Shown piece after piece: positions 35,327 to 63,636 of a stretch of 64,000 bases of DNA. Location of the stretch: positions 25,316 to 89,315 of the forward strand of contig JAAYOM010000059.1 of assembly GCA_012520315.1 (NCBI GenBank), in the 5' to 3' direction. Each line of letters begins with the position of its first letter. The first letter of the stretch is position 1. A model generated the notes under the pieces. The model had not been told where the DNA came from, did not search any database, and was given only the letters and a program-made list of their open reading frames with translations. The position numbers and the translations under genes were made by a program. This stretch comes from Bacillota bacterium. Its GTDB lineage: Bacteria; Bacillota; Limnochordia; Darwinibacteriales; Darwinibacteriaceae.

Positions 35327-36352
35327 TTGGACTTGCGGGAACTAGAACAAGCTATTTATAGGGCAGGTTTCGATGCCTTTGCCATAATGCCTGCCAAGCC
35401 AGTTAGATACATGCTTCCCATCCTCAGGGAAGCTCAAGCGGAAGATCGCTATCCTGATTTCGTGGATCCTAAGATCGACAGGCGCATCGATCCGAAAAAC
35501 CTGCAAAAGAGCGCTAAAAGCATCATCTCACTGGCCGTATCGTATTACACAGGGGACCCTGGCAACTGTCCTCCCCTCCAGGGAACCGTTTCGCGCTCAG
35601 CTTGGGGAGTTGATTACCATCAAGTTCTGGGCCAGGGCATGGACATGGTAATTGATTACCTCAGGCAGAATCTTGGTGCTGTAACCTGTACGAAGGCAGT
35701 TGATACCAGTTTTCTCATTGATCGGGCCCTGGCAGTCGAGGCTGGGCTTGGTTATCCTGGCAAGAACTGTGCCGTCTATGTGCCGCCCTTTGGGTCCTGG
35801 GTGTTCCTAGGGGAGATTCTGGCAGATGTGGATCTGCCCCCCACCAAAGGAGACGACCAGAATAATTGGGCGTGCCCAGCCGGCTGCGACCGATGCATCC
35901 GGGCCTGTCCCACAAAGGCACTTTTTGCGCCAGGGAAAATTCAGCCTAAACGCTGCATTTCCTATCTCACCCAGATGTCTGGACCGATCCCTCTCGACTT
36001 GCGGGAAAAAATCGGCAGCAAATTATGGGGTTGTGATATCTGCCAGCAGGTGTGTCCTATTAATCAAAAAGCAAGTCCCAGCCCACACAGGGAGTTTGAG
36101 CCTGTCATCGGCCCCCACGTCGGCTTGGTACCGCTCTTGGATCTTACGAAAAAAGAATTTGCCGAGCAGTTCGGTCAAACCAGCATGGCTTGGCGGGGCA
36201 AAAATGTACTGGCCCGCAATGCCTGCATCATCCTTGGCAATCAAGGCCGGACTGAAGTTTTGCCGTTGCTTGAAAAAACAGCCCGTGAGCATCCTAGCCC
36301 GATTGTCCAGGATGCTGCAGCCTGGGCCGTAGATAAACTTAGCAAAAACTAA
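35327..36352 (+). CDS. queG: tRNA epoxyqueuosine(34) reductase
   Basis: Two ferredoxin-type clusters are present (CDRCIRACP and CDICQQVCP). The C-terminus is HEAT-like. The start is TTG with GGAG upstream. Confidence 0.9.
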   Translation: MDLRELEQAIYRAGFDAFAIMPAKPVRYMLPILREAQAEDRYPDFVDPKIDRRIDPKNLQKSAKSIISLAVSYYTGDPGNCPPLQGTVSRSAWGVDYHQVLGQGMDMVIDYLRQNLGAVTCTKAVDTSFLIDRALAVEAGLGYPGKNCAVYVPPFGSWVFLGEILADVDLPPTKGDDQNNWACPAGCDRCIRACPTKALFAPGKIQPKRCISYLTQMSGPIPLDLREKIGSKLWGCDICQQVCPINQKASPSPHREFEPVIGPHVGLVPLLDLTKKEFAEQFGQTSMAWRGKNVLARNACIILGNQGRTEVLPLLEKTAREHPSPIVQDAAAWAVDKLSKN

Positions 36353-37689
36353 TTGATGCTCTGGCTCGCCCTTTCCAGGGCCCGTTTGAGGTGCTCACCA
36401 TAGGGACCGTTCCGCTGGGTCGTAGACTCCAGTGCCTGTTCCAGGAATGTTACCGCCTCTTCCCCGCCATAACGGCCAATGGAGATTGCCATTTGAGCCT
36501 TTTCCTCGTTCTCCTCGGGATAATGATCAAACATTTCCCTCAGCAGATTCCATCTTCGCTTCGCAGGAGGTCCATGGGATAAGAAGAGGGCTAGATACGG
36601 CAACAGGGGAGAATCGCGATTTGCCCGAACGAAACGCCGTATGGCCGGCAGCTCCTTGCCGCCAAAGGACTTCAGCAAGCTCCAGCACTCGAAGTACAAG
36701 GGATCATCTGGATCAAGGTCAGCTAGAATCTCCAGGATCAGATCGCTCACTTCCACAAGAACCCAGCGATGGCAATACACGAGCAACCGCATGAGAAAGC
36801 TTGGGTCAATATCCGGATTCACGGCCCGGGCCCCTAGGATCATCAGAATTAGATCGACTGCCTGATCATCTGGCTCGACATCTATGTGTTCGAAACTGGT
36901 AAAAAGGCTTTCGAAGAAATAGTCATACTTGTCCTTATCAAGTACAGTGTTGAAATCTGTGTAACCAGAGCCCCCCTGACGGAAGTTCCGAAAGACGCCA
37001 AGGTCTGATACTATGTTCCCCTTCACTATTGTCCGTTTTTGCCGTTCGGTAGCAAGATCCTCCAGCGGGAAATTGTAGTAGGGGGTGACCCTGAAGTTGT
37101 TCATTAATGTCTGCAAACCCTGCATGACCACCTGAATGCGGGGATGGCTGACCTTCAGCCACATAGGCCTTAGGCGTGCCCCCCGCAGCATTTTTGCTCC
37201 TGCGCGCCCCAGCATCAGGTTGAGTTTTCCTTCAACATCGATGTCCCTTTGCCTCAGAACCTGATGGGCTTTTTGCAAGATCGTGTCTAGATCCTCATCA
37301 ACAGAATCATTGGCAGCGCTGTAGCACCGCATCATCTGCCCATAGGCCTGCATGCGTAAACGCGTCTGCATTCCTGCTCCCTGTAGGAAGTGATCCACCA
37401 CATACTGAATATCCAGGGGAAATTGGTACTTATTTAAATCAGTAAAGAGTCCGTCCACCAAACGCTGTACTTCTGCATCTGCTTCCTCCAGTTCCCGTTC
37501 TCCTTTGAGGGCTGCACTAAGCATGGCCACAACCGCCAGTAACTCTAGGGATGCACTGTAGGCAGCCAGCATTAAATCCCTTTCATAGAAGAACATGCTC
37601 TCCTTGATCTCAAGGCAGGCCGCGACAAACCCGTCTACTGTGGTAATCTCTGTGATTTCTTCCGTAAGTTCTTCATAGTCCCTCAGCAA
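36349..37689 (-). CDS. uncharacterised 446-aa all-helical protein, C-terminal part HEAT-repeat-like
   Basis: The ORF is long with coding-like composition. It starts at TTG 8 nt after a GAGGTGGG that overlaps the rnhA stop. I recognised no family motif. The C-terminus (LLPYLALFL...AISIGRYGGEEAVTFLEQAL) looks HEAT-like. Confidence 0.5.
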   Translation of the reverse strand: MLRDYEELTEEITEITTVDGFVAACLEIKESMFFYERDLMLAAYSASLELLAVVAMLSAALKGERELEEADAEVQRLVDGLFTDLNKYQFPLDIQYVVDHFLQGAGMQTRLRMQAYGQMMRCYSAANDSVDEDLDTILQKAHQVLRQRDIDVEGKLNLMLGRAGAKMLRGARLRPMWLKVSHPRIQVVMQGLQTLMNNFRVTPYYNFPLEDLATERQKRTIVKGNIVSDLGVFRNFRQGGSGYTDFNTVLDKDKYDYFFESLFTSFEHIDVEPDDQAVDLILMILGARAVNPDIDPSFLMRLLVYCHRWVLVEVSDLILEILADLDPDDPLYFECWSLLKSFGGKELPAIRRFVRANRDSPLLPYLALFLSHGPPAKRRWNLLREMFDHYPEENEEKAQMAISIGRYGGEEAVTFLEQALESTTQRNGPYGEHLKRALERASQSIN

Positions 37690-50340: not shown

Positions 50341-50898
50341 TCATTGAGCTGCCAGCGGCGACACCCTCTCATAAACTCCGCTTTTTCTTGCCAGAAGGCT
50401 AAACTCAACTAGATCTTTGCGGATCGTGCAAAAGTCATCATGAAAATCGGCAATGATGAGATTGACTTCCTTTTCGGTGTAAGTTCGCCCCTTGTCAAAG
50501 CTTTCAGCGATTTTTTCCAACACAATGCGCCTCTTCATCTTCTGGACAGGTAGACACTGAAGTTTACCAGCTTTGAAACAGGAGGCTATCACCTGTTCAC
50601 GATATTCATCCTCCCTTTGGGCTGGAAGGTGATCCCCGAGACAACCTGCCTGAACTAGTTCGCCGAGGGTGAGCTGGAATACATCTTCGTTGAGGCTGTA
50701 GATGGTGTAATACTGTTCTTTTCGGGAAGACACTATCTTCGCTTCCATCAGCTTTTTCAAATGGAAACAGACAGTGGATTTGGACAAATCCAGCCTTTCA
50801 GCTAGCAGTTCAACGTACATTGCCTCGATCATCAGGCTGTTTACTATGCGCAATCTGGAGTTATCTGAAAGGCACTTGAAAATTTCTGTTGGATTCAT
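50341..50898 (-). CDS. ArsR-family HTH regulator fused to a DUF2087 domain
   Basis: The N-terminus (FKCLSDNSRLRIVNSLM...STVCFHLKKL) is an ArsR-type winged helix. The C-terminus (GRTYTEKEVNLIIADFHDDFCTIRKDLVEFSLLAR) matches the DUF2087 pattern. Confidence 0.7.
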   Translation of the reverse strand: MNPTEIFKCLSDNSRLRIVNSLMIEAMYVELLAERLDLSKSTVCFHLKKLMEAKIVSSRKEQYYTIYSLNEDVFQLTLGELVQAGCLGDHLPAQREDEYREQVIASCFKAGKLQCLPVQKMKRRIVLEKIAESFDKGRTYTEKEVNLIIADFHDDFCTIRKDLVEFSLLARKSGVYERVSPLAAQ

Positions 50899-51070
50899 GC
50901 ACACACTTGATCAACGCCCATTTCACAAAGTAATTTTGCTAACGGCTTTATCCAGCCGCATTGATTATTCTATACTAGATTGCTCTTTATTTCAACATGC
51001 ATATACTTATATTATCAAATCTAATTCGACATAGGCTGATGTAGATTTGTGCAGATGTGTCCTCGACGCG

Positions 51071-51095
51071 AAAAAGGTCAGGCCTTCGCCTGACC
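51071..51095 (-). terminator. rho-independent terminator ending the ABC/TolC-like operon
   Basis: An 8-bp stem (GGTCAGGC / GCCTGACC) with a 4-nt loop is followed by TTTTT on the minus strand, 12 nt after the stop at 51108. Confidence 0.65.
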
Positions 51096-51107: not shown

Positions 51108-52370
51108 CTAGCTTTCCCTCAAAGCCTCTACAGGGGGAAGCTTTGAGGCCTGCAGGGCGGGGTAAAAGCCAAAGACTTGCCCCATCGCAACTGCCATGGC
51201 AAAAGATATCAAGGCTGCTGCAGGATGCAGCCCCCCTATATTGTTCAGTCTTGGATAGGTAATCTCCTGGACCAGCATATTAATGAGGCGATCAGCGGTA
51301 AAGTAGGCTGCAGCTAGACCGCAGGCCGCACCCAGTACCGAAAAGACCAGGGACTCGTTGAGAATCTGCCTGACAATGACTCCCTTTGATGCCCCTAAAG
51401 CCTTTCTTAAGCCGATTTCCCTTGTCCGTTCCACCACACTGACCAGCATGATGCTCAAAATGCCAATTGCGCTAATCAAGATGGAAATAAAGGCAAAAGC
51501 ACCCAAAAAGAGGGTGATAGTACGAATCTGGTCCCGGAAGAAGCGGGTGGACTCTGCGAAGTATTCACCCCGAACTTCCATCTCACCTAAAGAACGATCA
51601 GCCAGCAGCACCTGGGCTTCTTCCACAGCTTCATACACCATATTTGGTTTAGCTCTAATAATGATCTCGTGGTACAAAGGTTCATGATCCATCTCTGCCA
51701 TCCAGGCGGGCTGGGCGGCCCCTAGGGGGAAAATCAGATGAGCCTGGGAGATAAAAAACTCCAGAAGCGGCGATTGGAGTTTGTAGACCCCAATTACCCT
51801 AAACTCCGTACTAGCTTCTCCGTAGTTCCCCAGGTAAATAGACTTTCCCAGGGCAGACTGCTTTGGAAAAAGCTGCTCAGCAATGACCTCTGAAACCAGG
51901 ACAACCTTGTTCTTCTGCTCCTGATCAGCTTCAGTAAAAAACTGCCCCTCTACAAGCTCCAAACCCATGGTCTGTGCATAACCTGAGGTTGCTTCCGCCG
52001 TGCTGAACACACTATAGCCCACACCGTCTACCACAATACTCCGTTCCCATTGGCTTTGAAAGATAAAGGCAGAATCAATATACTCACTTGCTTCAAGCCT
52101 GGCTAAATCGCTGAAACGCAAATTACTGGTGGAACTGACCATCATTCCTCCATCCTCGAACTCTTCGTACTGAGCAACGCTAATTTTCGCCAAAGTGCTG
52201 CCCAGAGTTTCGGTTAGTGTGTCCATTGTGCCGGTAGCTTGCAGATTCAGGGACAAAATGATTGCCACAATCCAAACTCCCAAACCCATCTGGAGGATGG
52301 TCAAAAAAGAGCGCAGCGGTCTTTTAGCCATAACCCTTGCCGTAAACTTAAAAGTTTCCAACTCCATCAC
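51108..52370 (-). CDS. MacB/FtsX-type ABC permease (permease 2)
   Basis: The 420-aa product has TM1, a large extracytoplasmic domain and a C-terminal FtsX three-TM module (REIGLRKALGASKGVIVRQILNESL, PPVEALRES). Confidence 0.85.
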   Translation of the reverse strand: MMELETFKFTARVMAKRPLRSFLTILQMGLGVWIVAIILSLNLQATGTMDTLTETLGSTLAKISVAQYEEFEDGGMMVSSTSNLRFSDLARLEASEYIDSAFIFQSQWERSIVVDGVGYSVFSTAEATSGYAQTMGLELVEGQFFTEADQEQKNKVVLVSEVIAEQLFPKQSALGKSIYLGNYGEASTEFRVIGVYKLQSPLLEFFISQAHLIFPLGAAQPAWMAEMDHEPLYHEIIIRAKPNMVYEAVEEAQVLLADRSLGEMEVRGEYFAESTRFFRDQIRTITLFLGAFAFISILISAIGILSIMLVSVVERTREIGLRKALGASKGVIVRQILNESLVFSVLGAACGLAAAYFTADRLINMLVQEITYPRLNNIGGLHPAAALISFAMAVAMGQVFGFYPALQASKLPPVEALRES

Positions 52371-52375
52371 TCCCT

Positions 52376-53683
52376 TTAGTCAGTACGCAAGGCGTCTACC
52401 GGATTGGTTCTAGATCCAAGGTAAGCTGGGTAAACTCCAAAGAGGAGGCTCACTATTAGTCCCAGGGCAAAGCCAAGAAATATGCGTGTTCCCAGCATAC
52501 CTGTGTCGAAAAAGGCGCCAAGTGCCCTTTGCAACACATTAACCAACGCAAAGGACAGGAAAATACCGAAGATCGACCCGACAAGCCCGAGGGTGATCGC
52601 CTCCAGCATAAACTGTCTGAACACCATGTGCCGAGAACTGCCCAGGGCCATAGACAGGCCAATGGATTTTGTTCGTTTCAAAACCCTAGCAAGCATCAAG
52701 TTTAGAATATTGATCACCGCAATAACCAACCCTACAGAGGCTAGGACTCCAATCAGCAAAGCATAGCGCTGCATTTGCTTTTGCGACTCCCTGAACTCCA
52801 AGAGGGAGCTGCGCACCGCAATTAGATCCCCCCAGATTAAGCGGGCTTCACCCTCCACCGTCTCTGTTGCCGCGGCGATGTCAACACCTACATCAAGGCC
52901 AATAGAGACATTGGAAAACTGCGTCTGCCCACCTTCTCTGAAATAATCATAGGGCGAGCTTGTAACAGGGGCGTAAGCCATGCGCGGATCTCGATAAACG
53001 GTTAGTCCCCCTTCCGTGTCAGGTGGAGATTCAAGAACTCCAATTACAGTATAATCCAGGGTTTCCTCACCGCCGTGGACCGCCAAAGGAACTACCTGGC
53101 CTATGGGGTCATCTGAACCAAAGAGCTCTGCAGCTAAACTGTCCGGCAAGATAAGTACCCGGCTTTGGTTTTTCAGATCGTCAGCCACAAAGAAGTTGCC
53201 CCTTTGCAGCATTGCACCGCTGAAGGCAAAGTAACCCGGTGTGGTTCCCGTCACAAAAATGCGGTTTGCACCGTAAAATCTTGCAGCCATGGACATGTCA
53301 TCAGAGTCTTCTTCCGGGAGGAGGGGTGTTTCTGCCAGCCAGAAGCTTTCTACATAGGCGTGCATATTTGCAGGCAAGTGCCTGTGCAGCTCTTCCACTT
53401 CCTCCAGATTTGCACTCCAGTCTCCGCTCTCGGTTTCGGAACCAAGCAGCACCAGCGGGGCGCCGTCGCGCCTGCTGGATTCGGCCTTCCCTATAATTTC
53501 CAAAGTTCTAAAGTGCAGAGCCTCTTCATTGCCGCGCAGCTGCTGGCCCACAGATAAGAGCATGGCCAGGACAGTGATGATTACACCTACCCCCAGAGTG
53601 ATAGCTGTCACTACAAGCAAGGACTCCAGGAGCTGTTTTTTCGAATGTCGAACCGACCACTTAAACTGGTCCCATAGTGGCAA
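52376..53683 (-). CDS. MacB/FtsX-type ABC permease (permease 1)
   Basis: The 435-aa product has the same topology (KSIGLSMALGSSRHMVFRQFMLEAI, NPVDALRTD). Confidence 0.85.
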   Translation of the reverse strand: MPLWDQFKWSVRHSKKQLLESLLVVTAITLGVGVIITVLAMLLSVGQQLRGNEEALHFRTLEIIGKAESSRRDGAPLVLLGSETESGDWSANLEEVEELHRHLPANMHAYVESFWLAETPLLPEEDSDDMSMAARFYGANRIFVTGTTPGYFAFSGAMLQRGNFFVADDLKNQSRVLILPDSLAAELFGSDDPIGQVVPLAVHGGEETLDYTVIGVLESPPDTEGGLTVYRDPRMAYAPVTSSPYDYFREGGQTQFSNVSIGLDVGVDIAAATETVEGEARLIWGDLIAVRSSLLEFRESQKQMQRYALLIGVLASVGLVIAVINILNLMLARVLKRTKSIGLSMALGSSRHMVFRQFMLEAITLGLVGSIFGIFLSFALVNVLQRALGAFFDTGMLGTRIFLGFALGLIVSLLFGVYPAYLGSRTNPVDALRTD

Positions 53684-53695
53684 CGCTATCCCCTC

Positions 53696-55039
53696 CTAGT
53701 TAATTACAGCAAAAACCAGGCTTCGCAAATCCCGACCGCACAAGTTCCAGAGGTCAAGGAGTCTTTGGGCGTAGTCCATTTTGCTGTGGGCATGATCGTC
53801 CGCTGCCCTTTGCAGAGCCAAGGCGGTTTCCTGGACCTGAAGTTCTGTTACCAGGCCTGCTTCATACTGCCTGTGGCGAAGCTTAAGGTCAGCTTGTGCC
53901 TCCGCAAGATGCTCAGACTTTAGCTGAACCATCGCACGAGCCGACCTGACCCCTTGCACCGCGGAGCGCAGTTGGGCCAGCAAAGCACTTTCCTGCATTT
54001 CCAGGTCATGTTCGGCCTGGGCTGCCGCCAATTCCAGTTCTTCCAGCACAATGTTCCTCGGGTAGAGAGTTTTGGTAGCTGTCAGACTCATTTTCCAGTT
54101 CACAGGTTGGGAACTGGCTGGATCAGGACCAGACTGGTTAAGATTCAAATCGCCGCTGGCCTTAAGATCCCAGCCTCTGGTTTTTCGCTCCAAATCTAAC
54201 TCCTGCTGGGCCCGGGTCAGGCGGGCCTTTGCCTCCTGCAGCTGAGGGCTTGAGGCGAAGACTTCTTCTTTAAGCTCCTCTTCGGCCAGGTCCAACTCCA
54301 GAACATCGGTACTAATCTGCGGATCGTAAAGCGCACCTTCAGACTCACCCAGGAAAGCTCCGAGCTGAAGCTGCAGTTGCTGCAACTCTTTTTGTATGTC
54401 GGCTAATGTTTCTGCTTGCTTTCTTAGATCTTTCCTCAGATCCAAATCATCGTAATTGGGCGTCAGTCTTGCCGCCTCAAGGGAGGCCTCTAAATACTTA
54501 AGGTGTGCCTCTTCTTGTTTGCTAAGATCAAGTTTTTTCTTCAGCTGCACAAGCTGGCCCACCGTCTGGAGAACTAAGGTGTTGACCTGGGCCTGTCTTT
54601 GCTGCTGGGCAAGGCGCTCACTGGTTTCGGTTTCAGGCAGGGCGAAAAAATTATAGTTCAACGTAAGGCTGCCAGTTGGCTTAACGTCCAGTCTTTTTTC
54701 ATCAAATCCAACTCGAATGGTGCCGTCAAGTTCAAAGTACTGGCCTAAAGGCACATTTAGGCTAATGCTTCCCTCCGGCCCTGCAAACTTGCCGTTTCTA
54801 ACGCCTGCCGGTTCTGTCCTTGCTGTTATCTTAGGGTGCTTTTCTAAAGCTTCTCTTTTTTCGAGAAGCTCCTGTTCCCATAAAAACAGGGCGTGGCTGG
54901 TATTTTGCTCAAAGACCAGATCCAAGGCTTCTGCTAGAGTAATCGGTTTTAGCTCCGCTGCTCGGCTCAGTTTTGGGCACCCGGAGCAGATGACGATAAG
55001 CAGCCCTACGGTGAGTGCCTTAAGGACTCTATTTTTCAT
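53696..55039 (-). CDS. TolC/OEP-family outer-membrane-factor-like protein with recognisable beta-hairpin segments
   Basis: A signal peptide is present. There are two OEP-type repeats, each opening with a helix (ITLAEALDLVFEQN). Alternating-pattern strand segments follow (GSISLNVPLGQYFELDGTIRVGF, TGSLTLNYNFF; WDLKASGDLNLN, WKMSLTATKTLY), then long coiled coils. I preferred the ATG start at 55039, with AGGTGAG upstream. Confidence 0.7.
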   Translation of the reverse strand: MKNRVLKALTVGLLIVICSGCPKLSRAAELKPITLAEALDLVFEQNTSHALFLWEQELLEKREALEKHPKITARTEPAGVRNGKFAGPEGSISLNVPLGQYFELDGTIRVGFDEKRLDVKPTGSLTLNYNFFALPETETSERLAQQQRQAQVNTLVLQTVGQLVQLKKKLDLSKQEEAHLKYLEASLEAARLTPNYDDLDLRKDLRKQAETLADIQKELQQLQLQLGAFLGESEGALYDPQISTDVLELDLAEEELKEEVFASSPQLQEAKARLTRAQQELDLERKTRGWDLKASGDLNLNQSGPDPASSQPVNWKMSLTATKTLYPRNIVLEELELAAAQAEHDLEMQESALLAQLRSAVQGVRSARAMVQLKSEHLAEAQADLKLRHRQYEAGLVTELQVQETALALQRAADDHAHSKMDYAQRLLDLWNLCGRDLRSLVFAVIN

Positions 55040-56120
55040 GGTTCTCACCTGATTCTTCATACTTGCCGATCGTCTGCAAAAGCTTAATCCGAGCCTGGGT
55101 ATAGTTAGATAAAGCTACATGGTATTGTTCTTCCAGGCTGGCAAGCTTTTCTTGCTGGGCCACAATTTGGGCATTGCTTAACACACCGGCAGCATACTTG
55201 CTTTCTTCAGCCAGCAGAGCCTGCCTCTCCAACTTAATGTTACGTTCGTCCATTTCCAGATTATGCACCTGATCCTGCAGGGCGTAGTATTCTCCCCGAA
55301 TTCTGAAATAGAGGGACTGTTCCGCTTGCTGAAGGTTAATCTTGGCTTTTTCCTCCTGAACTAAAGCCTGTTCCAGCTCCACCCTGGGTGTAAAGGGGCT
55401 TTGGGCAATTAGCACTGCTTCCCGGGCTTTTTGCAGGCTCTCCCTGGCTGCCAGGACCTCTGAATCAAGTTCCAGGGCCAGTTCGTAACAGGTTTCCAGG
55501 CTATAGGTAAAGGGAACAAAATCAAGCAGAAGCCGTTCCGTCAAAGCTACCTCCTGATCATGGGGCAGCCCTAAAATACTGTTAAACTGCATGCGCTCGG
55601 TTTCCAAGTCAATGATTGCTTTCTGATAGCGATGTTCAGCGTCATACAGGCTGTTTTGGGCCCGTTCAATATCCAGGGTAGATAAAAGACCGGCCTTATA
55701 TTTGTTCTCATCTATGCCCAGCTGGTTTTCGGCCCGTTCTTTGGCTTCCCTGGCGTTTTCTACCATGGCTTCCTTTTCTAAAAATTGCTGGTAGCGGGTG
55801 CGGATTTGATCTTGGAGTTCTCTGCGCTTTTCTGCGTAGATTTCTTGGGCCTTGTCCCACTCCTGCTCTGCTTCGATCAGCATTTCTTCATCACCGACAA
55901 TCTGGGCCCTTTCCAGTTTAGCCTGGGCCTGCTGCCAATCTAAGGTGGCAATTTGGAAGTTGAGATTGCTTTCATAGGCCAGATCTACTGCATCCTTAAC
56001 GGTAAGTTCCAGAACCTGTGCACCGGCCAGTGCGGAAAAGCACGTTATAAACAAGCAGGCCAGGGCGGCCAGGAACATAGGCTGCACGCTTCTTGGCACA
56101 TTGGCTTTTACCTTAAGCAT
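55029..56120 (-). CDS. TolC/OEP-like protein, short form that appears purely helical
   Basis: It has a signal peptide (MFLAALACLFITCFSALAGA) and OEP repeat openers (LTVKDAVDLAYESNLNFQIA; SLETCYELALELDSEVLAA...SPFTPRVEL). The sequence runs straight into coiled coil where TolC proteins have strand hairpins. Confidence 0.6.
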   Translation of the reverse strand: MLKVKANVPRSVQPMFLAALACLFITCFSALAGAQVLELTVKDAVDLAYESNLNFQIATLDWQQAQAKLERAQIVGDEEMLIEAEQEWDKAQEIYAEKRRELQDQIRTRYQQFLEKEAMVENAREAKERAENQLGIDENKYKAGLLSTLDIERAQNSLYDAEHRYQKAIIDLETERMQFNSILGLPHDQEVALTERLLLDFVPFTYSLETCYELALELDSEVLAARESLQKAREAVLIAQSPFTPRVELEQALVQEEKAKINLQQAEQSLYFRIRGEYYALQDQVHNLEMDERNIKLERQALLAEESKYAAGVLSNAQIVAQQEKLASLEEQYHVALSNYTQARIKLLQTIGKYEESGENHEK

Positions 56121-56808
56121 CTTTTTCCATTCCCTTCGTTGCTCGATCTTCTACAATGGTTCCATCCCGCAGTGCAACCAAGCGTTTTCCGTAGGTGCTT
56201 ATGTGTGAGTCATGGGTAACAATCACGATGGTGGTTCCCTGCTCATTCAGCCTTTGCAGAATGCCCATGATTTCTGCTCCTTGATCAGTGGCCAGATTGC
56301 CGGTGGGTTCATCTGCTAAAATGAGTGTAGGATTGTTGGCCAATGCTCTGGCAATAGCCACCCTTTGCTGTTCACCGCCGGAGAGTTGGGTGGGAAGGTG
56401 ACGAAGGCGATGCTCCATCCCTACACTGGCCAAAAGGCTCTCAGCCTTCACTAATCTTTCCCGCTTCGGCTTGCCTGCGTACATCAGGGGAACCATCACA
56501 TTTTCCAGCGCGCTTAGTTCTGGAAAGAGGTTGTAGCTCTGAAAAATGAAACCGAAGTGGCGATTGCGAATCTGGGCAAGTTCTCGGTCTTTAAGGCGGG
56601 TGATATCCACATCTTCCAAAAAGTAAGTACCGGAGCTGGGCTGATCGAGTACTCCCAAGACATTCAACAAGGTGGACTTGCCTGATCCAGAAGGACCCAT
56701 AATCGATAAAAACTCGCCCCTCTGAATAGTAAGGTTGATCCGATCCAGGGCTCGAATTTCCACATCTCCCATGTAATATTCCTTGCTGATTCCCTCTAAC
56801 CTAATCAC
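56113..56808 (-). CDS. MacB/LolD-type ABC transporter ATP-binding protein (stand-alone)
   Basis: Walker A (GPSGSGKST), the signature LSGGEQQR, Walker B ([10 protein letters not shown]) and a Q-loop context (FIFQSYNL) are present in a 231-aa product. Confidence 0.9.
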
Positions 56809-58112
56809 AACTCATGTCCCCCCTCGGGCAGAATTTGGATCTCATCTAGATGGCGGAAAGCGTCATAGGAACTGATAATGACCTGTTCTCCCAGCTCCAG
56901 GCCACGCACAATCTGCACTGCATTGCCCTGCAGAAGGCCAAACTGCACATCGCGCTTGCGGGCCCTATCACCATCGATTACATATACGAAAAGCTGCTGG
57001 CCGCTGGTCAGGTAAGCCCCGCGGGGAAGAAACAGGCTGTCTTCATGCAGCTGCAGATGAATATTAGCCGTCACTTGACTGTTAGGCCTCAGGTGCGACA
57101 CCTCGCCCAAAAAATCTACTCTGACCAGCACTGTTGAGCCGTCTGTACCCTGCTTCGCCTGGGGCGCAATATAGGAGACCTCACCTTTATACGTGGTTTG
57201 TCCGAGAGTGATATCGACCTCGGTTCCAATGCCAAAGCGTTCTGTCTGACCGGGAGAAACCTGGAGTTCTACCACCTGGCTGCTTAAATCAGCCAGTTCT
57301 CCAAGTTCTTGGTGGGCGGTGACAATACGATTAGCAGGGATTTTCAAGGAGAGAATTCTTCCTGTATAGCCTGCTGTTATCACAAAGTTATCAATCTTTT
57401 CCTGGGCCTTGGCCAGCTTTTCTTCTGCCATAGCAATTGTCTTGCCCAGGGCCGCTTGATCCGCCTCGTGCTTGCGGGTCAAAAGTTCAAGTTCCCGTTC
57501 ACTTTGGACAATTCTGCGCTTGGCTGCTTCTACATTCTGCTCTGCCTTCTCAAGGTCAACTCGGGGAATGGAACCATAGCCAAAGAGTATCTCTTGAAGT
57601 TCTAGATCGCTTTCTGCTTGGCGCAGCTGTTCCTTGGCATCGAGAACTTTGACACGTTCTGCTTCCATCTCCAACTCTTGATCAATCCCTAACTGGGCAA
57701 GTTTTGTCCTGGCCTCTGCCAGTTCAGTTTCGGCAGCATTGCGCTCTGCAACTGCTTCAGCACTGTAGAGGCGCATTAGGGGCTGGCCTTCCACTACATC
57801 CTGGCCCTCCTGGATCAAAATCTCCTCAATTGTACCGGCAATTTTTGGTTCGAGCACTACAATTTGTTTAGGAATAATCGTGCCCCGTACCTGGAGGGTT
57901 TCTAGAAAATCCTGTGTCCCCACTGAGGCATAAGTATAAAAATTTAGGATGAAGTTGTCCTGTTTAGGCATAAAAAAGTAATAGGCGCCGTAGGCAATGA
58001 GGCCAATGGTAATAATGGTGAAGATAATTAGACTGAGCTGTTTGTTAGCACTCGATTGCTTATGCTTTTTCTGCTGCTTGCGAAGCCGTTCTGGTACGAT
58101 AGGTTCGTTCAT
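56805..58112 (-). CDS. HlyD/MacA-type membrane-fusion (periplasmic adaptor) protein
   Basis: An N-terminal TM is followed by a lipoyl-like motif (GTIEEILIQEGQDVVEGQPLMRL), a long coiled-coil hairpin and a beta-barrel C-terminus. I placed the start at ATG 58112 (MNEPIV), with CAGGGAGG upstream. Confidence 0.8.
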   Translation of the reverse strand: MNEPIVPERLRKQQKKHKQSSANKQLSLIIFTIITIGLIAYGAYYFFMPKQDNFILNFYTYASVGTQDFLETLQVRGTIIPKQIVVLEPKIAGTIEEILIQEGQDVVEGQPLMRLYSAEAVAERNAAETELAEARTKLAQLGIDQELEMEAERVKVLDAKEQLRQAESDLELQEILFGYGSIPRVDLEKAEQNVEAAKRRIVQSERELELLTRKHEADQAALGKTIAMAEEKLAKAQEKIDNFVITAGYTGRILSLKIPANRIVTAHQELGELADLSSQVVELQVSPGQTERFGIGTEVDITLGQTTYKGEVSYIAPQAKQGTDGSTVLVRVDFLGEVSHLRPNSQVTANIHLQLHEDSLFLPRGAYLTSGQQLFVYVIDGDRARKRDVQFGLLQGNAVQIVRGLELGEQVIISSYDAFRHLDEIQILPEGGHEL

Positions 58113-58391
58113 GTCTTGACCTCCCTGGTTCACGTCATCTAGCAAGCCTTTCCTTCCCAAGTGTTTTCTCTAAAGGATGGACCTTTCCTGTTGTGAATTG
58201 TTGGATAGGAAGATATTGCCTTTTATTACCATTCAACGGCATGGGGTTCTTTCCTGCATAATCCGGGATTCTCTAGCGCCTAAAGTGTAGATTGCCTCTA
58301 AACCCTTGTTCCAACAGGACCCAGATAGGATCGGCGAAGCCCACTTCCCCAATTTCTCCAGCCCAATTGTTCCTCAAGGGCATCCAACGCG

Positions 58392-58436: not shown

Positions 58437-59414
58437 TTAGGCTAGAATCTCTTCGATTTTCTCAAATGTCTCTGGACTTAACTCAACATCGACTGCCTTG
58501 ACGTTTGCTTCAATCTGATCCGGACGAGACGCACCAACTAAGGCACTTGCCACATTAGGCTGGCGCAGAATCCAGGCCAAAGCCATTTCCACAAAGGTTA
58601 TGCCCAGTTCTCCTGCTAAATCTTCCAGAGCATCCACTTTGGCCATTACGCCGGATGCGATTAGCTCTTTAATCCATGCATTGATCTCGGGATTGGAGGC
58701 CCTTGTTCCTGCAGGGATCTGACCGCCCCGGTACTTGCCCGTCAAGAGCCCTTGGGCTAGTGGTGAGAAAACAATCTGGCCAATCCCGTATTTTTCGCTA
58801 ACGGGAATGATCTCCGGCTCAATGTAGCGGTTCAGCATATTGTACACCGGCTGGTTCACCACAATACGATCGAGCAGATAGCGATCGGCTACAGCAACTG
58901 CTTCTTCGATCTGGGCTGCAGTCCACTCGCTTACTCCCGCATAGAGCACCTTGCCTTGGCGAATCAGATCGTCAATCGTGCGCAGAGTCTCTTCCACTGG
59001 AGCTTCCGGATCATAGCGATGGCAGTAGAAGATATCGACATAATCCAGTTCCATCCGCTTTAAGCTGGCATGGAGCTGCTCAAAGACATGTTTGCGAGAC
59101 AGGCCCCGATCATTTGGTCCGTCCCCCATGGGCCAGAAGGCCTTGGTGGTAATTACATAGGACTCCCTTGGAAATACGCTCAGCGCTTTGGCCATTACCT
59201 TTTCGCCCTGGCCCTGCTCATAAACATTGGCAGAATCAAATGAGTTGATTCCCAGTTCATAGGCCCGACGAATGGTCTTGATGGCGATATCATCTTCCAC
59301 AGACTTTCCATAGGTCAGCCAGCTGCCTAATGAGATCTCGCTGACTTTCAGGCCTGAGTTACCTAATCTACGATACTTCACGTTCTCATCTCCTTTTCTC
59401 TCAACTTTCTGCAA
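58437..59414 (-). CDS. aldo/keto reductase (Kv-beta / YajO-like)
   Basis: The 325-aa product contains [31 protein letters not shown] and NQPVYN. Confidence 0.9.
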
Positions 59415-62400
59415 AAGCCGCCGACAACATTAATTTGATCCTGTTGAGCTGATTAACTTCACTTGCCCCAGGGTCATAGTCTATTGGGATAATATTACTA
59501 TGTGGGTAAACTTTTTTCAAGCCCCGCAACATTCCCTTGCCCACCACATGGTTTGGCAAACAGGCAAAGGGTTGCATACAGACAATATTGTTCACGCCGC
59601 TTTCAATTAACTCCACCATTTCACCAGTGAGGAACCAGCCTTCCCCGGTCTGATGACCCAAAGAAATTACTTTAGAAGCATTTTTGGCCACTTCTTGAAT
59701 CAGTTTCGGCGGGCTGAACCTCTTGCTCGCTGCCAGTGCTTTTCTATAGGTTCCACGGTAAAATTCCATAATCTCGATCAGGGCATTACAGGCCGCCTTT
59801 TCAATTCTGCTGCCCGCTAAATACCTGTACTTGAAATCAAAGCCCAGGAGGGAGTACAGAAAGAAGTCCACAAGTTCAGGCACAACCGCTTCGGCACCTT
59901 CCGCTTCGACCAAGCCCACCACGTCGTTGTTGGCAGTAGGGTGATACTTGACCAGAATTTCACCAACTAAGCCTACCTTAGGCTTGGTCGCTTCTACGGT
60001 CTCCAAGGCATCAAACTCTGCTACTATGCCTAGGATGTTGTCCCTAAACTTCCTAGGCGAATAAGAGGACATAGACTCCTCGCAAATTTTCGCCCATTTC
60101 TCATAAAGTGCATTGGCAGAACCGGAAATTCTTTCATAGGGCCTCACCCGATAGAGGCATTTCATGAGCAGATCCCCATAGACTAGGGCAACCATGGCCC
60201 TGTGCAGCAGGGGAATAGTTATTTTGAACCCAGGATTCTTTTCAAAACCTTGAATGCTTAAAGAAAGAACCGGCACTTGGGGGTAACCTGCATCCTTCAG
60301 CGCTTTGCGCAAAAAGCCGATGTAGTTTGTAGCCCGGCAGCCTCCGCCCGTTTGGCTGATAACCACGGAGGTGTTGTCTGGATCATACTCGCCAGAGTTC
60401 AATACTTTCAGCAGCTGCCCGACAACAATGATTGCAGGGTAGCAGGCATCGTTATTCACATACTTGAGGCCTACTTCCACCGCATCTTTATCCATGGCGG
60501 GACAAATCACAACATTATACCCTGACAAAGCCATCGCCTTCTCCAGGAACCGGAAATGGATGGGGGCCATTTGCGGTACGATGATCGTATGCTCCTTCTT
60601 CATTTCCTTGGTGAAAATTTTTCTTCTGTAGCCTGGCTGCGGGTCCTTCGGCTGATGTCCTTGCTTATCACGTTCGGCCATGGCCGCCTGCAAGGAACGA
60701 ATTCTAATTCTGGCCGACCCTAAATTGTTCACTTCATCAATCTTCAAACAAGTATACATCTTAGAACGGGCGGAGAGAATTTCTTCCACCTGATCGGTGG
60801 TCACCGCATCAAGTCCGCAGCCAAAGGAGTTTAGCTGCACCAATTCAAGGTTCTTTTCTCCGGCGACAAAACTTGCAGCAGCATAGAGACGGGAGTGATA
60901 TGCCCACTGATCCACAACGCGCAAAGGCCTAGCCACTTCGCCTAAGTGGGCTACGGAATCTTCAGTTAAGACCGCCATGCCCAAATCATTGATCATTTCA
61001 GGAATGCCGTGGTTGATCTCTGGGTCAAGATGATAAGGCCTCCCCGCCAGGACAATTCCTTTCAGGCTTTGTTCAGCGAGATAAGCAAGGGTTTCCTCTC
61101 CCTTATTTCCCATATCTGCCTTGTACTTCTTCAATTCAGCCCAGGCCTTATCCACAGCACTTGTTACTTCCTCAGCCCCGACACCCAGCTGCGCCAGTTC
61201 TTCAGTCAAACGTTCTGTCAGCCTTGCTTTGTGATCAAAGGGCAGGAAGGGGTACATAAACTTGATGCCTGCCTCATGCACCTGGATCACATTGTTTTTG
61301 ATAACTTCCGGGTACGAAATCACAATGGGGCAGTTGAAGTGATTATCTGCCTCTTTTTGTTCTCGTTGATCATGGGTCAGGCAGGGGTAGAAAATCAGAT
61401 CCACACCTTTTTCCACTAAATCAACTACATGGCCGTGGGCAATTTTTCCTGGATAACAAACGGATTCTGACGGTATGGTCTCCATTCCTTTTTCATAAAT
61501 CTCTTTAGTTGAACGGGCTGAGAGTACCACAGAAAAGCCCAGTTCGGTAAAGAGAGTGAACCAGAACGGATAATTTTCATACATGTTTAAAACCCTAGGG
61601 ATACCGATCCGTCCCCTTTTGGCCTCTTCTGGATCCAGGGGTTTATAGGCGAAAAGTCTTTTGTAGGAATAGTCAAAGAGGTTGGGTAAATCTTGCTTGG
61701 TCTTCTTGACCCCCGCGCCTTTGCTGCAGCGATTGCCTGATATATGCCTCTGTCCTTGGCCAAAGTGGTTAATGGTCAACAAACAGTGATTGGAGCAGCC
61801 CTTGCATCTAGTGAGCTTGGTTTCGACAGACAGATTCTCCAAGGCATCCCGTTCAAGCAAGGTAGACGCATAGCCTTCTACATGGCGTTCCCGGGCTATC
61901 AGTGCCGCCCCGAATGCACCCATGATACCGGAAATATCCGGCCGGACAACTTTCACATCTGCTAAAAGTTCAAAGGCCCTTAAAACAGCATCGTTATGGA
62001 ATGTTCCTCCCTGTACAACTACCTTCTCGCCCAATTCTTCCTTGCTTCTCAATTTAATTACTTTGTAAAGTGCGTTCTTAACTACAGAGTAAGCCAGTCC
62101 GGCAGAAATCTCACCGACAGTGGCACCTTCCTTTTGTGCCTGCTTAACCCTGGAGTTCATAAATACAGTGCAGCGAGAACCTAAGTCAACTGGGTTTGGG
62201 GCAAGCAAAGCTGCTTCAGTAAACTCCTGAATACTTAAATTAAGGGAAAAGGCAAAGGTTTCCAGAAAAGATCCGCAGCCTGAAGAACAGGCCTCATTTA
62301 AAAGAATATTGTCAATGGCCCCATCCTTGATATGCAGGCACTTCATGTCCTGACCGCCTATATCCAAGATAAAGTCTACACCGGGCCGGAAAAACTCGGC

Positions 62401-63636
62401 CGCCTTGTAGTGGGCTACTGTTTCTATTTCGCCAATATCCACTTTCAGTGCGGCTTTTATCAAGCCTTCACCATATCCTGTAACCACTGAATTGGCGATC
62501 TTGGCACCCTTAGGCAAGGCCTTATACATTTCCAGCACTGCTCCTCGCACAGACTCCAAGGGTTTTCCTTCATTGCTGCCGTAGTAGCTGTGCAAAATTG
62601 CCCCGTCTTCATCTATAAGGGCTGCTTTTGTTGTGGTTGAACCCACATCGAGACCTAAGAAGCACTTACCTTCATAACCTTCTAGATCCCTCCTGGCAAC
62701 AGAATGCTTATTATGCCTGGCGCGAAAATCATCTAACTCCTGCTCATTGTAAAACAGAGGACGGAGCCTGATTGTCGGCTCAATAGATACATCCTGCAGC
62801 CCATTAATTCTGTCCATAAGCTCAGAAAAAGCAATTGATTCGCTGTCCCTGGCACTTAATGCTGCTCCGATGGCAATATATAGCTGCGGGTTTTCTGGAA
62901 AGATCACCTGATGATCCTTTAGTTCCAAAGTTTCAATAAACCGTTGCCTAAGCTCAGACAGGAAGTAAAGCGGTCCGCCCAAAAACGCCACATTCCCTTT
63001 AATCGTTCTGCCGCAGGCTAAACCGCTGACTGTTTGCACCACTACAGATTGGAAAATAGAAGCTGCCACATCTTCTCTGGCTGCCCCGTCATTTAATAGG
63101 GGTTGAATATCTGACTTGGCAAAGACACCGCAGCGGGCGGCTATGGGGTAAATTGTGGTATAACCCTTGGCAAGCTCATTTAGGCCAGCAGCATCTGTCC
63201 TTAAAAGAACCGCCATCTGATCTATAAAAGAGCCTGTCCCGCCGGCACAGATGCCATTCATCCTTTGCTCGATGCCGTCCTGGAAAAACGTGATTTTGGC
63301 ATCTTCTCCCCCTAGTTCAATGACAACATCGGTTTCGGGAAAGAAAGTCTGAATCGCCTTGGTCCCCGCGATCACTTCCTGCACAAAATCCACTTGCAGC
63401 AGTTCTGCTGCGGCAATGCCGCCGGAACCTGTGATGTTTAAAGTTATCGGATGATCGCCAAGCTTTTCATAGGCTTGTGTTATCAGGCTCACAACAGATT
63501 CTTTGATATCAGAGTAGTGCCTTTCATATTTAGAGAAAATCACTTCCAGCTGCTCATTTAAAATCACAATTTTTGCTGTTGTTGAGCCAACATCAATTCC
63601 CATGTGTACGAGCGTATTCAAAAAAAGATCCTCCAT
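59401..63636 (-). CDS. fused BadF/BcrA/HgdC-type double ATPase (activase) plus DUF2229-type C-terminal half; BCR/2-hydroxyacyl-CoA dehydratase superfamily, substrate unknown
   Basis: There are two acetate/sugar-kinase-type phosphate-1 motifs ([14 protein letters not shown] near aa 13 and [14 protein letters not shown] near aa 330). A Cys cluster ([10 protein letters not shown]...CSKG) and about 750 aa of C-terminal region follow. The total is 1411 aa. Confidence 0.8.

Follow-up and report, generated by a model that had tools for sequence, protein, structure and literature searches.

Barrel-reduced relatives of TolC are already known from Firmicutes that have a single membrane (monoderm Firmicutes). 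The TolC-like proteins of these bacteria were described, from a homology model, as showing an "omission" in the barrel domain and a hydrophilic surface, and a location at the S-layer was proposed for them (Stubenrauch et al. 2022, PLoS Biol, PMC8809574). The available text of that paper mentions that L. gingivalis has two TolC-like genes in one operon; a pairing of a short with a long form is not analyzed in that text. It was the only paper that we found on barrel-less or heteromeric TolC. Our search found no paper on a fully barrel-less form in lineages reported to be diderm, on the pairing of such a form with a partner that has an enlarged barrel, or on the size of the barrel-less clade. Here we describe such a pair of genes, a short one (S) and a long one (L), in a stretch of 64,000 nucleotides (nt) from a Bacillota genome (GCA_012520315.1, contig JAAYOM010000059.1, positions 25,316 to 89,315), called the window below. 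S and L lie in one operon with the genes of a MacB-type exporter.

We found that S is a Sec-exported, non-lipidated protomer of the TolC family that has the whole alpha-helical tunnel, the equatorial domain and both periplasmic tips, and has tight turns in place of the barrel hairpins. The two genes and the parts of S are listed here by window position, with lengths and residues in amino acids (aa).

55029..56120, minus strand: S, barrel-less TolC/OEP-family protein, 363 aa (Pfam OEP, AlphaFold2, Foldseek)
53696..55039, minus strand: L, barrel-bearing OEP-family partner, 447 aa (Pfam OEP, AlphaFold2, Foldseek)
56022..56120, minus strand: predicted signal peptide of S, aa 1-33 (sequence; helix 12-31 in the model)
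55881..55910, minus strand: top turn 1 of S, aa 71-80, RAQIVGDEEM, where H2 is joined straight to H3 at the site of TolC S1-S2
55371..55406, minus strand: top turn 2 of S, aa 239-250, AQSPFTPRVELE, where H6 is joined straight to H7 at the site of TolC S4-S5
55662..55703, minus strand: periplasmic tip 1 of S, aa 140-153, KYKAGLLSTLDIER, canonical hairpin-tip motif of outer membrane factors (OMFs; motif scan)
55158..55199, minus strand: periplasmic tip 2 of S, aa 308-321, KYAAGVLSNAQIVA, canonical OMF hairpin-tip motif (motif scan)

S matched the Pfam family OEP (PF02321) with an E-value of 1.2e-21 (77.9 bits; cutoff 22) in two stretches that correspond to both tandem repeats. Its N-terminus reads as a Sec signal peptide with a putative cleavage site: a hydrophobic helix that runs up to ALA-G, a cleavage motif of the AxA type, without a conserved lipobox cysteine. 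The signal peptide, the cleavage site and the non-lipidated state were judged from the sequence and by comparison with homologues. Lipoprotein anchoring of S or L was dropped as a candidate: no cysteine of either signal peptide is conserved among the homologues, and both proteins were therefore treated as substrates of signal peptidase I.

We predicted the structure of S as a monomer with AlphaFold2, using an alignment of 29 homologues. The mean pLDDT (predicted local distance difference test score) was 86.5, and it was 91-96 over both turn regions. In the model, the helix of the signal peptide and a short N-terminal strand precede H1, H2 (residues 53-75), a two-residue turn (G76-D77), the 65-residue H3 (78-142) and H4 (148-183). 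After these come H5, H6 (220-239), a six-residue loop (240-245, SPFTPR), the 65-residue H7 (246-310) and H8 (316-350). The equatorial elements are present, and the order of the helices, with H3 and H7 long and H2, H4, H6 and H8 of half length, is that of TolC. We looked in this model for the four barrel strands of a normal protomer, which would have spoken against a barrel-less protein, and found no strands at the S1-S2 or the S4-S5 position. When the model was compared with the PDB using Foldseek, the top 44 matches were all OMFs, including OprM, TolC and CusC (query-normalised TM-scores of 0.45-0.67).

A profile alignment is consistent with the model. AQSPFTPRVEL of S aligned to ARSPLLPQLGL and to AQDGHLPTLDL of TolC, the helix ends that run into the first strand of each hairpin, with SPFTPRVEL of S lying over SPLLPQLGL, the beginning of strand S1. 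Beyond this match, the alignment restarts at TolC residue 92 in repeat 1 and at residue 302 in repeat 2, so that approximately 40-50 residues are absent from S at each hairpin site. By this alignment, the stretch at top turn 2 is the apparent leftover of the start of a strand. A preliminary description of the window, made from the sequence alone, had claimed a signal peptide, both OEP repeats and the absence of a hairpin after each repeat opener. All three are borne out by the Pfam match, by the hydrophobic helix, by the modeled turns of two and six residues, and by the gaps against TolC. Its estimate that about 100 residues are missing was too high for the pair at hand, as S is 84 aa shorter than L.

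The two periplasmic tips of S, KYKAGLLSTLDI and KYAAGVLSNAQI, align to the tips of TolC and are canonical; tip 1 aligned to FNVGLVAITDVQ of TolC. Conservation among the homologues was 0.75 for turn 1, 0.78 for turn 2, 0.79 for tip 1 and 0.87 for tip 2, compared with a mean of 0.72 for the whole protein. Tip 2 is the most conserved part of S, and R71, A72, V75 and G76 in turn 1 are invariant or nearly so.

S is thus like TolC (1EK9), OprM (1WP1) and CusC (3PIK) in its two OEP repeats, its helix order and its canonical tips, and in having genes for an adaptor and an inner-membrane transporter beside its own. It differs in having neither the S1-S2 nor the S4-S5 hairpin, which leaves it without a membrane-embedded part, and in coming with a second OMF homologue. 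By its repeats and modeled fold, S belongs to the OEP superfamily, yet the membrane barrel that defines this family is predicted to be absent. Its scores against the NCBIfam models for TolC (TIGR01844, 40.8 bits) and NodT (TIGR01845, 32.7 bits) were far from the cutoffs of 225 and 210. Because S lacks the barrel and fails both cutoffs, "outer membrane protein" is not a fitting name for it.

We found that L is also unusual, a feature that the preliminary description had overlooked. In its model, L has six strand-like segments per protomer instead of four. L matched Pfam OEP with 54.8 bits in the second repeat only, and its AlphaFold2 monomer model (30 homologues; pLDDT 82.9) had TolC structures as the best matches in the PDB (9tg4, E-value of 1.3e-17). 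The most likely start of L is the ATG at 55039 (447 aa), which is preceded by the Shine-Dalgarno sequence AGGTGA and gives an overlap of 11 nt with the end of S. The ATG at 55060 used in the mechanical open reading frame (454 aa) is disfavored, since the homologues and the Shine-Dalgarno sequence favor 55039. The two parts of the predicted barrel are as follows.

54623..54841, minus strand: enlarged barrel segment of L in repeat 1, aa 67-139, 73 residues between H2 and H3 (DSSP and hydropathy)
54059..54178, minus strand: barrel hairpin of L in repeat 2, aa 288-327, two strands (DSSP 290-300 and 314-323; alternating hydropathy)

DSSP assigned strands in repeat 1 at residues 70-76, 79-81, 84-86, 89-97, 102-112 and 122-130, and the hydropathy averaged over the family (40 clusters of L homologues) alternates at 71-80, 92-98, 102-112 and 125-134. 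This gives four amphipathic strand segments, compared with two in TolC, and only the last of the four aligns to TolC, with profile positions 120-130 falling on the end of S2. Because there are four segments in repeat 1 and two in repeat 2, we count six strands per L protomer. In contrast, each of the solved OMFs among our matches is a homotrimer whose protomers have four strands, and it reaches across both the periplasm and the outer membrane. The strands of L are amphipathic in the manner of lipid-facing strands throughout the family. The preliminary description had L keeping strands at both positions, and it does, within residues 70-130 and 290-323. Taken together with the results for S, its central statement, that an exported TolC-family protein with tunnel and equatorial parts only lies beside a barrel-bearing homologue, is upheld by the Pfam matches, both models and the Foldseek searches. 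H7 of L is approximately 65 residues long in the model, like the long helices of S. The first periplasmic tip of L (LTPNYDDL, with invariant T and P) is not canonical, and in a motif scan most L partners had just one canonical tip; in most pairs it is the first tip of L that departs from the motif.

Every L partner has one enlarged barrel segment. It is in repeat 1 (approximately 70-90 residues) in the partners at L026, L030 and L032 and in the second pair at L025, and in repeat 2 (approximately 72-90 residues) in the partners at L035 and L036 (loci listed below). Strand counts for partners other than the L of the window come from sequences read by eye, and long loops may explain part of their extra length.

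We found that S and L have been inherited together over deep divergence and with different types of pump. A scan of species-representative genomes found 22 S loci, all in metagenome-assembled genomes (MAGs) of Bacillota, Limnochordia or Ca. Darwinibacter, mostly from anaerobic digesters. S was followed directly by L in 20/22 of these loci. The order MFP-ABC-S-L-FtsX-FtsX (MFP, the periplasmic adaptor) was present in all loci of the window family that are long enough to show it, and in Ca. Darwinibacter the flanking genes match those of the window as well. Altogether, six lineages have S and L side by side, and a seventh has them in one operon. The pairs were found in Limnochordia-like MAGs, in Natronospora (Halanaerobiales) and in further lineages, usually with MacB-type pump genes. 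Arrangements that differ from that of the window are listed here.

L026: S-L-FtsX-FtsX-MFP-ABC
L030 (Natronospora): S-L-FtsX-FtsX-MFP-ABC
L032: S-L alone, pump genes not nearby
L035: L-MFP-ABC-FtsX-S
L036: RND-S-L-TetR
L025, 1-6718: S-L-FtsX-FtsX, then a second S-L pair (352 aa and 467 aa)
L023, 1547-6256: MFP-ABC-S-FtsX-FtsX, then a second, distant barrel-less OEP protein (350 aa)

S is under purifying selection. Approximately 70 clusters (90% identity) of proteins that are 44-81% identical to S are all 344-363 aa long and have no hairpins. In every locus compared, S was less diverged than L (44-81% versus 27-68% identity to the window proteins). Using hhalign, just 112 columns of S and L could be aligned, with 21% identity, which rules out S as a recent tandem duplicate of L. 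The preliminary description had called S a paralog that lost its hairpins. The hairpins are absent, but the low S/L identity and the age of the barrel-less clade speak against a recent local loss.

This clade appears to be large and old, judging from profile comparisons. A search with the S profile of 1.84 billion representatives (50% identity) gave 8573 matches with E-values up to 1e-3. Of the best 150 matches, 142 were full-length proteins; we re-aligned these to the S profile, and 106 of the 142 had no hairpins. The 142 fell into the following classes.

Class I, 82 of 142: both barrel positions short, as in S
Class II, 24 of 142: a polar loop of 10-25 residues at turn 1 and nothing at turn 2
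Canonical or unresolved, 36 of 142: hairpins present, or alignment unclear

Among the named members of the clade are Limnochordia MAGs, Natronospora cellulosivora (Halanaerobiales), Calderihabitans maritimus (Neomoorellales) and Clostridia MAGs. The Halanaerobiales are diderm Firmicutes. Members with visible source names are labeled "TolC family protein" or "outer membrane protein TolC". When diverse barrel-less sequences were used for a profile search, most matches were canonical TolCs, an effect of the word filter, and a metagenome scan with a narrower alignment found one marginal locus.

Class I and class II are told apart by genomic context. Pairing of class I proteins with an enlarged-barrel L is nearly obligate, whereas class II proteins are alone. 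In Calderihabitans maritimus and two other loci, the class II protein is the OEP of an MFP-RND-OEP-TetR cassette. The related Clostridia that have such a lone barrel-less homologue are monoderm. The preliminary description had asked whether the short form always comes with a long form. For class I it does in 20/22 loci of the window family, but not for class II, nor at L023, where no L adjoins S. The surroundings of the class II loci are as follows.

L031, 3612-11619: class II locus adjoining genes for SLH-domain proteins or SLH-peptidases
L033, 3724-9762: the same
L034, 749-9826: the same

We note that class II cassettes beside SLH genes fit the published idea of ducts that end at the S-layer.

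The class II proteins match the monoderm TolC-like proteins of Stubenrauch et al., which are likewise OEP proteins of Firmicutes encoded in pump operons and belong to the same broad clade. S shares with that group, as characterized there, a barrel region that is absent and not hydrophobic in an OEP protein from Firmicutes. It does not share the setting, since the described proteins are single ducts in hosts without an outer membrane, whereas S is paired with L, mostly in MacB-type operons. Also, turn 1 of class II is a polar loop of 10-25 residues and the turns of S are tight. We do not count S as the sole duct component of a single-membrane host, because its nearest named relatives are Limnochordia/Ca. 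Darwinibacter, Limnochordia are reported to be diderm, and L is encoded with S. An outer membrane in Limnochordia was reported from genomic markers and electron microscopy (PMC11456536, citing Taib et al. 2020); the presumed diderm state of the organism studied here is taken from that report and from the strands of L, not from its own envelope. The preliminary description had held that none of the arrangements it proposed is established. This holds for the pairing of S with L, which we did not find described, but precedents for a barrel-less form exist in the monoderm proteins (PMC8809574) and in the lone forms that follow MFP-RND.

The six genes of the operon are all on the minus strand. We identified them from open reading frames with Pfam and NCBIfam; S and L, listed above, are the third and fourth.

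56805..58160, minus strand: MFP (periplasmic adaptor), 451 aa (Pfam HlyD_D23, HlyD_3, Biotin_lipoyl_2)
56113..56808, minus strand: ABC ATPase of MacB/LolD/DevA type, 231 aa (Pfam ABC_tran, 3.9e-35)
52376..53683, minus strand: MacB-type permease 1 (MacB_PCD and FtsX), 435 aa (Pfam; NCBIfam MacB and ADOP)
51108..52370, minus strand: MacB-type permease 2 (MacB_PCD and FtsX), 420 aa (Pfam; NCBIfam MacB and ADOP)
51076..51095, minus strand: terminator-like stem-loop, 8-bp stem with 6 GC pairs, and a T-run (consensus scan)

The genes are tightly packed, with overlaps of 4 nt (MFP/ATPase), 8 nt (ATPase/S; the junction is ATGCTTAA) and 11 nt (S/L), and gaps of 12 nt (L/permease 1) and 5 nt (permease 1/permease 2). 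The stem-loop is 13 nt 3' of the permease 2 gene and is likely the end of the operon; the scan that found it was based on a consensus only, and its number of sites was not above that expected from shuffled sequence. The top NCBIfam matches of the ATPase were the MacB nucleotide-binding domain, DarD and LolD. The MFP scored 127 bits against NCBIfam RND_mfp (cutoff 94.9), and YknX_C is present in its orthologues. Reading its sequence by eye, we found an N-terminal transmembrane helix and a hairpin region of approximately 120 residues; its tip motif, GSIPRVDLEKAE, is kept in 20 loci.

Separately, we noticed that IPRVDLEKA at the tip of the MFP (aa 198-206, window 57540-57570) is nearly the same motif as TPRVELEQA at turn 2 of S. 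The likeness is kept in the close family and lost in the distant pair at L026. It may reflect mimicry of the adaptor tip by S or merely a common way of capping helices; because of the loss in the L026 pair, we demoted mimicry to a weak lead.

All the parts of a MacB-type tripartite exporter are present in this one system: permeases with MacB_PCD and FtsX, a MacB-like ATPase, an adaptor of the HlyD family and an OMF. The MacB_PCD and FtsX permeases, the MacB/LolD/DevA-like ATPase and the HlyD/YknX-like adaptor are likewise those of the MacAB-TolC, DevBCA-HgdD and YknXYZ-type exporters. However, the operon departs from the three-component scheme with one OMF. It has a separate ATPase gene and two different permease genes, a layout like that of LolCDE, where MacAB-TolC has a fused MacB homodimer, and it has two OEP genes, and so two duct proteins, where MacAB-TolC has one.

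How might two duct proteins serve one pump? We consider it evenly balanced whether S and L together make up an obligate two-protein exit duct, either as stacked trimers or as a 2L:1S assembly with a 12-strand barrel built from two six-strand protomers. Of the specific arrangements, we tentatively put forward a trimer of S stacked with a trimer of L as a two-tier duct, a reading to which we give somewhat less than even chances. Three S protomers would make up a soluble tube of 12 helices with both ends open. The lower end of this tube, with six canonical tips, would dock tip-to-tip on the adaptor hexamer that serves the MacB-type ABC exporter, and the upper end, with six conserved helical turns, would meet the periplasmic end of the L trimer. 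L, probably co-translated with S, would provide the sole membrane barrel. The machine would then consist of the adaptor, the ATPase, two permeases and two duct proteins. Hexameric adaptors such as MacA and AcrA dock on OMFs in this tip-to-tip way through six hairpin tips. The top of the S trimer, six helical turns on a 12-helix barrel, would be a functional analog of the hexameric alpha-hairpin barrel of MacA and AcrA; the two are not homologous. In the related Clostridia, the lone barrel-less homologue encoded after MFP-RND presumably takes the duct through the wall. Because these Clostridia are held to be monoderm, we suggest that S is a module able to work without an outer membrane.

Several results support the stacked arrangement. 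Both tips of S are canonical and are the best conserved parts, and the upper turns are conserved like the tips, as expected of an interface. The first tip of L is not canonical, and most L partners keep one canonical tip. Finally, the lineage of the host is reported to be diderm (PMC11456536) and L has amphipathic strands of the lipid-facing type.

Other points weigh against stacking. The quaternary arrangement of S and L is inferred throughout. Stacking leaves unexplained the enlarged barrel segment that every L partner has. At L023 there is no L between S and the permeases, nor before the end of the contig. The stacked duct would, from the helix lengths in the models and general knowledge, be approximately 10 nm longer than MacAB-TolC and would need a wide periplasm. 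The net charges of the upper turns of S (-2.9 and -1.2) and of the tips of L (-0.7 and -2.9) are all acidic. Simple charge complementarity between the top of S and the tips of L, which we had considered as a sign of docking, was thus uninformative and mildly unfavorable.

The main rival to stacking is a heterotrimer of two L and one S, in which 2 x 6 = 12 strands would close a barrel the size of that of TolC over a tunnel of 3 x 4 = 12 helices. We think this arrangement unlikely, though it would account for what stacking leaves aside, as the extra hairpin of L would make up for the strands absent from S. The L of the window, with four strand segments in repeat 1 and two in repeat 2, has the right number, and the enlarged segment, in repeat 1 or repeat 2 depending on the partner, looks like independent solutions to one need. 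At approximately 65 residues each, the long helices of S are as long as H7 of L, and the overlapping genes are probably translationally coupled. However, the solved OMFs that were matched are all homotrimers with four strands per protomer, and a two-fold barrel over a three-fold tunnel would need strained linkers, a mismatch of symmetry that is not known from any OMF. The identity between S and L is also low, approximately 21% over the 112 alignable columns. S-type proteins presumably form homotrimers, because in Calderihabitans and two other loci they occur without any L. Beyond the L of the window, moreover, the strand counts come from reading sequences, and long extracellular loops may account for part of the extra length.

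It is improbable, in our view, that S and L form independent ducts, with the S trimer capping the adaptor alone, as the relatives in Clostridia seem to do, and letting substrate out within the periplasm or the peptidoglycan layer, and the L trimer acting as a separate, co-regulated outer membrane channel. The barrel-less relatives that exist without L, the S at L023 without an adjacent L, and the lack of charge complementarity between the top of S and the tips of L are what such a division would lead one to expect. But six independent lineages have the two genes side by side and a seventh has them in a single operon, and among these the pair at L032 occurs without pump genes. The upper turns of S are strongly conserved, and it is not obvious what a diderm cell would gain from a sealed tunnel that stops in the periplasm.

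We give still less credence to S as a plug, regulator or assembly factor, one of the options raised in the preliminary description, in which S would bind the periplasmic entrance of L or the adaptor and gate or chaperone it without conducting substrate. S is soluble, and its OMF-like tips could compete with L for the adaptor. The full tunnel and the equatorial domain of S are strongly conserved, beyond the needs of a plug, and the lone S-type proteins hold the position of the OMF in MFP-RND operons. Neither a plug nor independent ducts agree as well with the close co-inheritance of S and L and with a tunnel that is conserved in full, and we favor an extension of the duct by S, or a heterotrimer, over a plug. 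That S is a non-functional, decaying or truncated copy of a TolC gene, which the preliminary description had named as a way in which it could be wrong and for which its shorter length alone speaks, can be set aside: the frame is intact, the length is constant (344-363 aa over the approximately 70 clusters and the 22 species genomes), S is conserved and less diverged than L in every locus compared, and its model is confident.

If S and L do form a stacked or a 2L:1S duct, this would be an undescribed architecture for trans-envelope pumps. A soluble protein with only a tunnel and a protein with a six-strand barrel would share one job, which would be a new way to build a duct for efflux or secretion. 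The question bears on how tripartite pumps are constructed in diderm Firmicutes, and on how TolC-like proteins are assembled and work in single-membrane Firmicutes, which have neither Bam/Tam nor a membrane for them to sit in. The S/L pairs also offer a model for the transition from diderm to monoderm cells, in which the tunnel module may stay and the barrel module go; if the duct is obligate, the barrel-less subunit would have let pumps go on after monoderm Firmicutes lost the outer membrane. In addition, at least 106 clusters (50% identity) look barrel-less, and labels such as TolC mislead attempts to tell the type of envelope from genomes.

Just downstream of the terminator-like site is a gene for a regulator with ArsR-HTH and DUF2087 domains (50341-50904), which has its own promoter-like site (50995-50967). 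It is not at the corresponding position in the Ca. Darwinibacter loci and is therefore probably outside the conserved module. A 446-aa open reading frame (36349-37689, minus strand) matched no Pfam family at E-values up to 1e-5. The remaining window is ordinary chromosome, with genes for AddAB-like nucleases, Tex, a GlmM-like protein and SelO. Upstream of the operon are genes for an aldo-keto reductase (58437-59414) and a 1411-aa BcrAD_BadFG and DUF2229 fusion (activator plus dehydratase-like; 59401-63636), and the same synteny is found in Ca. Darwinibacter acetoxidans (L001-L003).

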